Assembly (NCBI GenBank): GCA_964016885.1
Contig: OZ024741.1
Coordinates: 215,636,001-215,700,000, forward strand
Length of the DNA stretch: 64,000 bases
Reading direction: 5' to 3'
From: Eledone cirrhosa
Taxonomy: Eukaryota
The notes beneath the pieces were generated by a model that saw only the letters and a program-made list of their open reading frames with translations, searched no databases and was not told where the DNA came from. Position numbers and translations under genes: made by a program. Below, piece by piece: positions 18,311 to 59,609 of this stretch (positions within the stretch are counted from its first letter, which is position 1; every line of letters begins with the position of its first letter).

Positions 18311-18607
18311 ATACGTGGAAAAGTAAGAAATCGGTGAATGGACCGTTAAAACGTTTCGCCCAGTTGGGCTTGTACGTTTCGCCCAATTGGGCTTGTCAAG
18401 GGCATAAATAACCAAAAGTGTTCCTTACATTGCTTACTTTTCTACGTGCTTACGCTCTGCTAACTCTCTAGTCCACTAAATATTAACACTTCGAATATTT
18501 AATACTGCCGGCACTATTATTGAGCACCTTTGGCATACGCTACTTGGCAAATAACTATATGAATCACCTATCCTTCCTTTTTTTCTCTCTCTCGATACGT
18601 AAATACT
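18311..18607. mobile_element. Solo fold-back pLTR of the Naiad-like family at 46841-52349
   Basis: 18311-18433 is the reverse complement of about 52225-52349, and 18434-18607 is the reverse complement of about 50201-50378. It includes the TTGACAA-GCCC..GGGC-GAAACGTAC core and sits in (TA)n. Confidence 0.85.
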
Positions 18608-18720
18608 TTATATATATATATATATATATATATATATATATATATATATATATATATATATATATATATATATATATATATATATATATATATATATATA
18701 TATATATATATATATATATA

Positions 18721-19200
18721 TGTAAACAGAAATGTACGGCCCTTTCTGAATTGATCTGGAAGCTCAAACTTGAAAAGACCCCGCACTCTCTGGTCTGGTC
18801 CGTGGTTAGAAAGGTTCCCCCAGACAGAGGTGGGTCTGGTATTTCCAACCTCTGTCTTAGCGAGACACTCGAGATACTTCATGGCGGAATCAAGCTATTA
18901 AACAAAAGGGCCGACTTATTCGGCGCCTGCAGACACCTAAGGACAGGAACTTTCCTCAAGCTATATGGATACACCCCGGTTATAGCGTCCCACAATACCC
19001 CCCCTCCTGTCGGTCCCCTACACCCCGTGCCAATGACCAATGGGCAACAACACGCACCCATAGTTTGTGGACCCTACTGTGGATTGTCCACCGGATCATC
19101 TACTGGTTAGGAGTCAGCAAAACCACGTTTATTAAACCTGAGGACCTCCCCCCCCCCACCCTGGGGGTGGCCCACACAGGTAGAACAATTATCCTTAGGT
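18721..19200 (+). mobile_element. 5'-truncated Naiad-like PLE, GIY-YIG C-terminal part
   Basis: [45 protein letters not shown] degenerate CTGAGGA-CCT..AGG motif lies at about 19138-19195. Confidence 0.75.
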
Positions 19201-20274
19201 ACTAACCCTATACGTATGAATGCGTGCCCGCAACCGTACGTTGTGTGTGTATACTAGGATTATGTAAATGTACACACTCATGTGAACGCAACGAAATACT
19301 AATACCCCAAGTTGCATTTGAAAAATGTTCGAGTGTATGCTTAAGAGTATATTTGTATATGCTCTCTTGTATGAGTGCACATATGTATATAGACATACAC
19401 GCGCATCCAGAGGTATAAAAGTGTGGGTGGGAATATATGTCTGTACTAAGGGATTCACCTAAGCTCCGAAGCGCCCAAGCTATTGCTGTGAAGATATATA
19501 TCACACTCTACTTTTGTCTAGTCTAAACAATAACTTTTCCAAACACCCACTTTACTTTTCTTTAAAAAAATAACACCCACCTCGTTTTATGTCTGCCTTA
19601 TACTTGGATTCGGGGGCCTCTGTTGTATATATATATATGCACTTGTGCGTACACACACCTGTTTGGATTTGTGTGTGTAGATGTGTGTGTGTCTGTGGGG
19701 ATAGGTGTGAGTGCATGTACAAGTCAACCAACATAAGTCTTTTTATTTGTAAACTTTCTAAGTATTTGACTCTAACCATAATTTTCAGTATTACCACCCC
19801 ACAGAAATTCCTCAATTTGTATATGTGGATGTGTGTGTGTCTGTGGGGGTGGGTGTGAGTGTATGTGCAAGTCAACCAACATAAGTCTTTTTATATGTAA
19901 ATTTTCTAGTATTCTACTCTAACAATGATTTTCAGTAGTACCACCCCACATACATTCCTCAATTTAAGAATGACCTGTAGTATCGAATTTCATACTATAA
20001 ACCTCAATTGAATATATTTCTGACCAGGAATGCTTTTTTTGTGAAAATCAGTCATATGGAACTATTGTCATCTTGCCTGACGGTTTGAACTTTACAACAC
20101 CACCTGCCTCTTTGAGGTCAAATACCAACCCTACTAGCATCTACAAACTGACCAATGAGAATTAGGATTATTCCTGCTGACTACATTAAATTATCCCTAA
20201 CAAGCTAATATGTCCCAAGGCTCTAAAACCATCAACACCATAAACACAGAGGTGGCATATCTAAGAACTGACTA

Positions 20275-20330
20275 ACTGCCTGATGAGGTCATAGCCATTC
20301 AATAGCCATCATCGAAATATATATAACAGT
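20275..20330 (+). ncRNA. Type I HHR (slightly degenerate)
   Basis: ACTGC-CTGATGA-GGT..ATC-GAAA-TATATA-TA-ACAGT, about 50 nt upstream of a (TA)n junction. Confidence 0.6.
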
Positions 20331-56602: not shown

Positions 56603-57835
56603 TTATGATGATGTTAAGATGAAAAATAATTCACTTTAGTTGAGGTCATGACCCTTTGAAAGGAATGGTTGAAAGGTGTTAATAACAGAATTGCCATAAA
56701 AAATCTATTAGGAAGAAAGGGATTGTCAAATTGATAGTTGAATGTATCTGGTATAGTGAAGTTTAAAAGGAATGTAAAAATTAAATGTTGAGTTGTGTTG
56801 TATGGAATTTTTAGGTGAATATAAATTAAGGTCATGGCTAGGAAAGATAGTATATTAAAAAATGAAAATTATAATAAGATAATGAAATACAGAAATACAA
56901 TAATATAATATAATGTAACACAATATAGTACGGTGTGGTAAATTGTACTTAGTATAATACAGCGTATGATACGCCTTAAAATACTTTCAAGTATGTCTAT
57001 GTATAAATAATGAAACTCAGATAAATACATGTTGACAGAGTCAAAACGCATAAATTTCATAGATCACAAAGTGCATATACACACATTATAGATAGATGTA
57101 TAGTTATATTGATACTCAACTAAAAATATACATACACATAAATAGATGCAAATATATACATACATCTACACATGTGCAAACAATCATATACACATATCTC
57201 TCTCTCTCTATATATACACTTACATATACACACCTATACACACATACATATATATATATGTATGTACACACACATATATGTACACACACACATATAAACA
57301 CTCATACACATATACTCGCATATACACACACACACACACACACACACACACACACACACACACACACACATATATATATATATATATATATAACGAAGGA
57401 AATGTGGTAAGGAACCAGGTGGACCATAACGCACCAAAGTACTCAATACTTGAGGTAGTAGAGTGGGTAATAGGAACCAGTAAGACCCCGACAGCTGAGC
57501 TCAAGCCGTTTCGACGGCTAATTCTGGAATTAGCCGTCCAGAATTAGCCGTCGAAACGGCTTGAGCTCAGCTGTCGGGGTCTTACTGGTTCCTATATATA
57601 TATATATATATATATATATATATATATTCCCATATCATACATACATAGATACATATTTACTCATGCAATTACGGGAGGTTGTGTACCTGGTTGTCCATAG
57701 TCATTAACGCATAAATCTAAGGAAGCTAAAACATTAAAAGGTAAGAAATAAGCATGAATGCGTATAATTAGGGGAAAGGGATACTAACAAATGTTATGCC
57801 ATATAGAATTATAGTGAGTTGCTATTTAGAATATT

Positions 57836-59450
57836 TAATTAGGTTTATAGTATTTAAATGTTTTTCGTATACGGTGATTACAAACTATAATCAGGTCCTG
57901 TCTTTTATTCAATAAATCGTCCTTAGATTTAGTAATTCCCAAGATCTCCCTTGAACATAACTTGCATTCTCTCCTGTTCCAAAGATATGGAGTTCTTTGT
58001 AGAATGGTTTTCCATGATAGCTTGAAATCTATGTTTTTCTTTTTATAGTTATTTACTGCTTCAGCTAAAGATGTGGTGATAGCTAGTTTAGTATTGTTAA
58101 AACTATAGAGTGTTCGTAAAATCTTTTCTTAAATGTGTTTGATGTAGATCCTATATATGTTTTGTTGGAGTCACTAGTTGACACAGTGCATTTATATATT
58201 ACATTATTAATCAAACAGTTGCCATTCAAGGGGCAAATGCTTCTATTTCTGCAATTACAACCATATGTAAGATGGTTGTTGGGGGGTATCTATACCATTC
58301 TCATTAATCCTTGAGCTATTCCTATTGTAATTAATGTTAGCGGGAGAGTGAAGGTTGCTTTGTGGGTGGTTTGGTGCTAGGGTTGTATTGTGACTTTGTG
58401 TTCTGTTGTTTTTGTGCTGGTGATTTGGGTGGTTGTGTTTTCCAGGTTGAAGGATTGTATTATTTGTCCTTTTAAAAGGTGCAGTCCTATTTAAATTATG
58501 TTGTGGTGGTGTGGTCATATTAGTTTTAATTTTATAAATGTTGTAGTTCCTTTTTTTTTGCTGGAGTTTGTTTGATTTAGAGTATGAGAATTTAACAGTA
58601 TATCTGTTAAATATTTGGTGGTATCTGTGGTTTGTTGGAAAATTCTTATGTAGAATTTCGAAAAATTTTGTGGGGATTTGTCCAATAGTTTGCAGTGTGA
58701 AGGGTGCCTTGTACCATGTTATGTTTCTTTTTCGGTTTTTAGTTAAGTTCTTATTACCACTTATATTATTGTGCTGTGTTCTAGAAGAATTCCTATGGTT
58801 AGTGTTCGTATTTGTGGAATTTGGTAAACTACCGTGGTTGTATTTGGTTTTATTATTGGGTAGATTATGAGATTTTGAATGCTTGGTATTCATATGTGGG
58901 TTGATAACATTATATCATGTAGTAATAGTTGTTGTGGTTTTTCGGTTGTTTGGTGTAATAGGATTACCCCTTTAAGTATTTGTTTCAATGGTATTTTTTG
59001 GTGTTTGTAGTTTTTGCTAGGTTTTATATTTTCGTCCATAGTAGTGTTGGGGATATATGAGATGTTTTCTTTATATCCACTTCTAGTTAAGGCCTCGTTG
59101 TAGAAGGGTGCATTATTATAAAATATATCTTAATTGGAAGATAATTTAGAAAGTCTAAGAGATATGTTATATACTAAGTTTTTGAGTATAAAGCCAGGGT
59201 AGTTAGAGCGTGAATGTACATAGTGTAGATTCTGGTTGAGTTTGTGGTACGGGTGATAAATATTCGTAGAGAGGCCTAAGGCAAGGAAATTAGCTACTTT
59301 TGAAGCGTTTTCAAAGGTGATATTAAGGTTGTAGTAGTCCTTGAGGAATTTTCTAATTTGTTTTTTGTTTTTCTCTATATTGGAATTGCTAAGATTGTTA
59401 GATAACAATAGACAATCATCCCGATAAAGACCACCTTTGAGGTGGGGAAA
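57836..59450 (-). pseudogene. PLE RT (partial) plus GIY-YIG relic
   Basis: GGLYRDDCL; YHPYHK..YVHSRSNYP; RKRNITWYKAPF; NFPTNHRYHQIFNRYTVKFSYS; GCNCRNRSICPLNGNCLINNVIYKCTV..TYIGSTSNTFKKRFYEH; ECKLC. Confidence 0.85.
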
Positions 59451-59465
59451 AGAAGAATAACATTA

Positions 59466-59609
59466 TTATTGCTTTTGACAACAGCTGGTGATATGCATGT
59501 AAGTAAATATTCTCTTTATCTGATATTTTGTAACTAAGCTTACATAGATCGATATCGAAGTATAGTTACGATGTACTATCATCACCTAGAAACGATCGTA
59601 AAGCAGTGA
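59466..59609 (+). ncRNA. Type I HHR, U3-A8 variant (inverted-arm copy)
   Basis: Mirror of 55168-55311, with a few substitutions in the helix II domain. Confidence 0.7.

Follow-up and report, generated by a model that had tools for sequence, protein, structure and literature searches.

Hammerheads with a U3-A8 core in four repeat families

We analyzed a window of 64,000 nucleotides from Eledone cirrhosa (assembly GCA_964016885.1, contig OZ024741.1, positions 215,636,001 to 215,700,000 of the forward strand), which has a GC content of 35% and belongs to a genome of 3.0 Gb. Four repeat families in this window carry a hammerhead ribozyme motif with the core UUGANAA, in which positions 3 and 8 form a U-A Watson-Crick pair (U3-A8) rather than the C-G pair (C3-G8) of CUGANGA. 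Judged from sequence, we consider it probable that these are type I hammerheads of two Hydra-like Penelope-like elements (PLEs; families A and B) and two non-coding tandem repeats (families C and D), that they cut precursor RNAs, likely as dimers, and that U-A replaced C-G in separate swaps under selection.

A preliminary description of the window had placed such cores in all four families, and all ten are present in a type I context. They lie at 52257 (+, UUGACAA), 47095 (-, UUGAGAA), and 18399 (-, UUGACAA) in family A; at 59475 (+) and 55302 (-), both UUGACAA, in family B; at 39838 (+) and 40429 (+), both UUGAUAA, in family C, which has a period of 591; and at 25198 (-) and 25500 (-), both UUGAUAA, and 25716 (-, UUGACAA) in family D, with a period of 302. 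The complete anatomy, comprising the core, GAAA, UH, and stems I to III with the molecule open at stem I, was found at 52257, 55302, 59475, 39838, 40429, and 25500. The other four copies (18399, 47095, 25198, and 25716) are damaged; for example, 25198 has GAAU and 25716 has GAAC where GAAAC is expected. A palindromic stem III is common to all four families.

Bare UUGANAA occurs at the chance level, with 59 instances in the window as compared to a mean of 54 (41-66) in 20 local dinucleotide shuffles. We used our own type I descriptor, which ignores positions 3, 7, and 8, on the window, on shuffled sequence, and on a genome sample. In the window, it found 14 sites, of which 8 are C3-G8, 5 are U3-A8, and 1 is C3-A8, while the 20 shuffles together gave 10 matches of any kind and none with U3-A8. 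In full structural context, unlike as a bare heptamer, the motif thus exceeds chance. This descriptor overlooks some real copies, including all three family D sites in the window, and an earlier, strict version overlooked bulged stems; the site at 25500 (-) was caught by the earlier version only. No hammerhead model of Rfam reached its threshold in four local scans of these sites, where the best was HH9 at 25442-25517 (15.9 bits against 52), and no hammerhead appeared among the 150 of 406 whole-window matches that were listed. Since canonical cores form the basis of the Rfam models, their failure lowers the filing of these sites under a known family, not the case for the mechanism.

Probable selection on the 3-8 pair

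An even sample of the genome (120 pieces of 10 kb, 1.2 Mb) gave 109 descriptor matches, of which 90 were C-G at positions 3 and 8, 10 were U-A, 2 were U-G, none was C-A, and 7 were other; three shuffles of the sample gave 36 matches, with 3 C-G and 1 U-A among them. There were 23 clusters with at least two distinct sequences, in which families A-D are enriched through our targeted searches. The main state was C-G in 17 and U-A in five, one was mixed, and none was fixed for a mismatch.

Pattern searches of the genome returned 3899 matches for the D superfamily (control 0), 11841 for the B superfamily, 2455 for family A, and 6399 for family C (control 7). The base states given here for A, B, and D come from the first 100 matches listed, all on one contig. 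For the D superfamily, these comprised 49 C-G, 45 U-A, 3 C-A, and 3 U-G when read by eye. In a 21-row alignment of the superfamily, 11 rows were C-G, 10 were U-A, and none was unpaired, with 95% of helix cells paired and with covariation in stem II. When positions 3 and 8 were masked, 34 U-A and 18 C-G rows still fell on opposite sides of the tree, and relatives of D at about 75% identity carry C3-G8. In the B superfamily, 1092 matches have U3 and 87 have C3 with a base other than G8. Among the first 100 U3 matches listed, 94 have A8, 5 have G8, and 1 has U8, and all five U3-G8 matches stand on C3-G8 family backgrounds. A tree of 27 rows, from which 22 near-identical B rows of 49 were left out, contains a single change of state.

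In family A, 97 of the listed matches are U-A and 3 are C-A, with variation at position 7 and in loop II. Position 7 varies among the subfamilies of both A and B, and positions 3 and 8 are constant. The preliminary description had given both UUGACAA and UUGAGAA for this family; both are present, but UUGACAA is only a minor variant, since most genomic copies of family A carry UUGAGAA.

Family C is nearly uniform, with U-A in 6366 of its 6399 matches. The exceptions are 18 matches without U3 and 15 without A8, and none is changed at both positions, the outcome expected where copies made from a U3-A8 master decay. Within this family, the test set by the preliminary description thus gives independence, and no covariation was seen. 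Twelve homologues of C below 85% identity differ at 5 of 156 core cells (3%), 7 of 156 in stem II (4.5%), and 3 of 96 in stem III (3%), as compared to 13 of 119 in stem I (11%), 180 of 528 in loop II (34%), and 242 of 815 in the flanks (30%), figures that are partly ascertained, as 10 of the 12 come from loci found with core patterns. All five core differences belong to copies chosen for lacking U3.

These results support selection on the 3-8 pair, as far as sister families can tell: they swap both bases jointly, and mismatched states are rare. The preliminary description had argued from paired covariation to selection. Selection is supported, but by evidence that this description did not have, above all the sister families of B and D; the occurrence of one variant in four families is not covariation. 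Several points count against our interpretation here. The conservation figures for family C depend in part on the way its homologues were found, no C3-G8 sister was found for family A or family C, and each switch between sister families is one event, so that the copy counts overstate the evidence. The weight for selection therefore lies in several separate switch events and not in thousands of copies.

Families A and B, Hydra-like Penelope-like elements

Family A has a hammerhead at 52253-52292 (+), with a 4-bp stem II, a palindromic stem III, and a predicted cut after GUA at 52287, at the end of an inverted 5'-truncated copy (50541-52347). A second one at 47060-47099 (-), in the 3' pseudo-long terminal repeat (pLTR), is in sense with the open reading frame (ORF) and has weakened stems I and II. 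In a fragment at 18351-18403 (-), a 23-bp duplication has removed stem III together with the 3' strand of stem I, and in an upstream copy of the pLTR (50202-50530, -) the hammerhead core is deleted. The ORF (47542-50207, -) contains stops and frameshifts and includes RWK, DKT, the reverse transcriptase (RT), thumb, a CxCx5C linker, and, at the C-terminus, a GIY-YIG endonuclease.

The hammerhead of family B at 59470-59605 (+) has a 107-nt stem-loop II and a predicted cut after GUA at 59600; it makes up a short inverted copy where the element is 5'-truncated. Its counterpart at 55172-55307 (-) is in sense with the ORF, which is broken and 5'-truncated (57835-59462, -) and retains the end of the RT, thumb, and, at the C-terminus, a GIY-YIG with CxCx5C, CxxC, and CxH. 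A sister of family B with a C3-G8 core (CUGAGGA at 46619) is found at 46614-46761 (+), with a long loop II and a stem III as in B.

Motifs and domain order, read by eye, identify A and B as Hydra-like PLEs. In both, the RT comes before the GIY-YIG endonuclease, the insertions lie in (TA)n, and the hammerhead is near the 3' end. RWK and DKT were found in family A; the window copy of B is truncated before that region. The last C of the CxCx5C linker is Y in the window copy of A and C in the other copies aligned (A, B, and genomic copies), and CxH was seen in B but not in that portion of A which the alignment covers. Pfam gave no match for 12 broken ORF pieces. The elements had been described as Naiad-like, a label that has to be replaced: Naiads are defined by an endonuclease at the N-terminus and also have DKA and CCHH (Craig et al. 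2021, PMC8557442), whereas in A and B the endonuclease is C-terminal, A has DKT, no CCHH was seen by eye in the alignment of the A and B endonucleases, and Hydra motifs are present instead. A and B are not Naiads.

Hydra-like elements are abundant in the genome sample, which also contains many hammerheads whose loop II carries an insert of 30-120 nt and which would escape a descriptor made for short loops. A 415-aa open frame in the window (41254-42501, +), with thumb, a C-terminal GIY-YIG, and a cysteine linker, is likewise abundant in the sample, and we take it, by its motifs, to be Neptune-like. Another open frame, at sample locus L259:111-575 (+), has CxxxxCxxC and CxxxxxIxxI motifs. It presumably resembles a Naiad- or Neptune-type endonuclease, which would mean that further PLE clades are present here.

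Several stretches near these hammerheads resemble introns. Within loop II of family B, 59498-59546 (+) is a 49-nt GUAAGU...CUAAC...ACAUAG sequence similar to a spliceosomal intron, also found at sample loci L201-L220, and the C3-G8 sisters of B have GUAUGU...ACAUAG over about 42-54 nt at this place. The stretch is very short, and pairing between its two ends, with compensatory changes, is also possible; it may be no more than a helix. In family A, GUAGGU (52285-52290, +), similar to a 5' splice site, overlaps the predicted cleavage site, with CUAAC...CUAG about 85 nt downstream, 5' of the ORF (50343-50430, -). GUAAGU or GUAUGA also follows soon after the hammerheads of D and C, and an overlap of the hammerhead with an intron of the pLTR is possible. 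In the contigs examined, no skip of the intron-like stretch of B and no joints in family C were seen. For the one stretch of family B that was looked up among RNA runs, no run was listed, an outcome that speaks neither for nor against expression. Contigs of a second organism cover 39700-40100 of family C and 59455-59550 of family B, a small share and a weak hint; the divergent family C contig among them differs in loop II only.

Families C and D, non-coding tandems

Family C occupies 39177-40586 (+) as a 591-bp tandem (39487-40586) with an inverted 5'-truncated copy (39177-39488), and it ends in (TA)n. Its two units carry hammerheads at 39833-39920 (+), with a long loop II and a GUC site, and at 40424-40511 (+). 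Family D is a tandem of about 300 bp at 25041-25765 (-) with three U3-A8 cores, of which the one at 25459-25504 (-) is intact, with a palindromic stem III and a GUU site; most genomic copies of D have GUC instead. A release of position 17 by U3-A8, which would let it be G, was considered and rejected, as the second copy of the family concerned has GUC. A DNA query with the hammerhead of family C gave no matches, probably owing to words that occur too often, and the pattern search recovered the family.

No recognisable coding content was found in the units of C or D. Copies of both terminate at one constant point within (TA)n and are often 5'-truncated with an inverted copy, like PLE insertions. 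C and D fit non-LTR retrozymes in that they are dispersed, non-coding tandems with a type I hammerhead in every unit.

Other tandems are present in the window. A 520-bp non-coding tandem with an inverted copy (23381-24548) has C3-G8 hammerheads with a long loop II at 23612 (-), 23921 (+), and 24441 (+) and is retrozyme-like. No hammerhead was found in the tandem arrays of 70, 93, and 86 bp at 61530-63147, 55700-56070, and 26689-27087.

Probable separate origins of the variant

The preliminary description had suggested that the shared core may link the two tandems to A and B as their helpers, and this proposal failed on several counts. The best blastn pieces between the C and D units and the ends of A and B are at most 20 nt long, with E values of 0.57 or worse. 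In a 28-row endonuclease tree, with hammerhead states set by hand, B falls together with its C3-G8 sisters (92/97, not starred), and a single clade of A and B has a p-AU (approximately unbiased test) of 0.04, a borderline value from a short alignment. The even sample contains three or more additional U3-A8 families, and the variant recurs in at least six families. Because B and D have C3-G8 relatives, C and D lack homology to A and B, and the clade of A and B is disfavoured, U3-A8 does not mark a lineage; U-A likely replaced C-G separately in each lineage, so that the variant does not tie C and D to A and B.

No ORF was consistently attached to C or D at the loci examined in the sampled genome. 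A Hydra-like helper for either is possible from the shared (TA)n targeting, and the core variant provides no evidence for it. Further U3-A8 hammerhead families were seen at sample loci L313:9647 (+), L199:8482 (+), L199:1599 (-), and L270:2775 (-). Decayed pieces resembling the third of these are present in the window at 59684-59830, 57403-57584, 44534-44620, and 35188-35357.

The closing pair of stem II

A G10.1-C11.1 pair directly on the core was present in 5 of the 6 U3-A8 groups with several sequences, as compared to 2 of the 18 C3-G8 groups (Fisher p 0.003, post hoc), or in 7 of 9 and 6 of 34 groups, respectively, when singletons are included; the families are not independent of one another, and in two of the C3-G8 groups a bulged base may hide G-C, which would weaken the contrast. 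In family D, the 3-8 pair and G10.1-C11.1 changed on the same branch, and family B is the exception to the pattern. These families could represent an epistasis series within one genome, in which U3-A8 was fixed repeatedly, mostly at a stacked G10.1-C11.1 pair, and in which about one tenth of the PLE and retrozyme hammerheads are active, unseen by CUGANGA surveys, and available with matched sisters. We put this forward tentatively, and the whole of it is somewhat doubtful. If it is true, the active set unseen by CUGANGA would include a retrozyme family with a copy number above 6,000 as well as two Hydra-like families.

Mode of action and alternative explanations

A possible mode of action begins with read-through transcripts of tandem copies, in which two hammerheads would pair by way of the palindromic stem III. 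A cut after GUH would free unit-length RNA, which may be circularised, reverse-transcribed, and inserted into (TA)n by the RT and endonuclease of a PLE; C and D would borrow this machinery from a helper element. Amplification would have been limited to masters whose 3-8 contact was paired, and the mismatches in dispersed copies would be decay after insertion. The U-A swap likely keeps self-cleavage working.

Against this interpretation, monomer folds mostly do not adopt the active topology, and the fold of family B pairs U3 with A17. In vitro, the cleavage of minimal PLE hammerheads is poor (PMC4209133), and in pairwise mutagenesis of another hammerhead construct all 3-8 swaps except G-C were low in activity (PMC9901934). 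Naiads have spread without canonical hammerheads (PMC8557442), and cleavage may therefore not be essential. Both in vitro results would fit weak or dead U3-A8 cores, in which two transitions drifted to fixation in masters that no longer needed cleavage and were then inherited by the copies; C to U and G to A are indeed both transitions, the window is AT-rich, and positions 3 and 8 decay independently within family C. We regard such drift as unlikely, since it sits poorly with the lack of any multi-sequence cluster fixed for a single change, with the U3-A8 lineages that keep or covary the remaining core and stems while loop and flanks diverge, and with a position 7 that varies among subfamilies of A and B where positions 3 and 8 do not.

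A single origin, with C and D derived from or mobilised by elements of the A or B type, would explain why all four families lie in (TA)n with inverted 5' copies of the PLE type. It would agree with the proposal that retrozymes elsewhere derive from PLEs through their pLTRs (Li et al., bioRxiv 10.64898/2026.07.22.740005), and one of the abundant Hydra-like elements could be the helper. It is nevertheless very improbable and largely refuted as far as the variant is a marker, given the missing homology, the C3-G8 relatives of D and sisters of B, the tree test on A and B, the additional U3-A8 families, the exclusion of A and B from Naiads, and the stems III and cleavage triplets that differ between families. 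That the sites are random heptamers in AT-rich repeats and not hammerheads at all is hardly credible. The heptamer count and the Rfam scans are what chance would predict, but the full three-stem context occurs at 5-6 sites in the window and never in 20 shuffles, the hammerheads of A and B sit in pLTRs, and alignments with C3-G8 sisters, which have canonical cores and covarying stems, refute it. Separate swaps under selection, in hammerheads that probably work, account best for the four families.

Relation to known systems and significance

Natural U3-A8 hammerheads were first seen in 2011, and were active in vitro according to reference 32 of that paper (Perreault et al. 2011, PMC3088659). The compensatory change is the same as here; there it was found in scattered examples, and here in sister transposon families of one genome. 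The pLTRs of the Cercyon PLE in Schistosoma mansoni have U3-A8 hammerheads, with a dimer model via stem III (Cervera & de la Pena 2014, PMC4209133), and about 1,300 matches were found only after the descriptor was changed. U3-A8 was thus published for PLEs in 2014. Like Cercyon, the elements here have type I hammerheads in pLTRs, U3-A8, and a palindromic stem III. Unlike Cercyon, they comprise Hydra-like elements and non-coding tandems, the stems III have 2-4 bp plus a palindromic loop and are not minimal, B and C have a long loop II, and several separate origins of U3-A8 can be traced.

The Hydra clade has a C-terminal GIY-YIG, RWK, DKT, CxCx5C, CxxC and CxH around E and N, short elements, and (TA)n targets (PMC8557442). 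A and B agree with it in domain order, motifs, short length, (TA)n targets, and the position of the hammerhead close to the 3' end. In File S2 of that paper, every one of the 26 Hydra rows (25 families) is CUGANGA, a motif that the descriptor demanded, whereas UUGANAA is the core in A and B, and a 107-nt stem-loop II is present in B. With Naiads, A and B share (TA)n targeting, pLTRs, and inverted 5'-truncated copies, but the domain order is opposite. Non-LTR retrozymes are non-coding tandems with one type I hammerhead per unit and thousands of copies (Cervera & de la Pena 2020, PMC7229834). C and D resemble them in being dispersed non-coding tandems with a type I hammerhead in each unit and thousands of copies; they differ in the U3-A8 core and in the 591-bp unit of C as compared to the roughly 170-400 nt quoted.

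For Hydra elements and for retrozymes, the literature searched, which covered few subscription papers, contained no report of U3-A8, and none of the link to G10.1-C11.1 came up in it either. U3-A8 in the Hydra clade, the matched C3-G8 and U3-A8 sister pairs, and the post hoc link to G10.1-C11.1 are therefore modestly new. U3-A8 itself is known, hence the result is unsurprising, and its value is practical. The swap between C3-G8 and U3-A8 is compensatory and escapes CUGANGA searches, as the preliminary description had held; in the even sample, such descriptors would overlook roughly one tenth of the hammerheads (10 of 109). Claims that some PLE groups are free of hammerheads depend on descriptors of the CUGANGA type. 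Sister families with a paired change and with conserved or covarying stems provide evidence of selection on the core, and they offer natural pairs for kinetic comparison.

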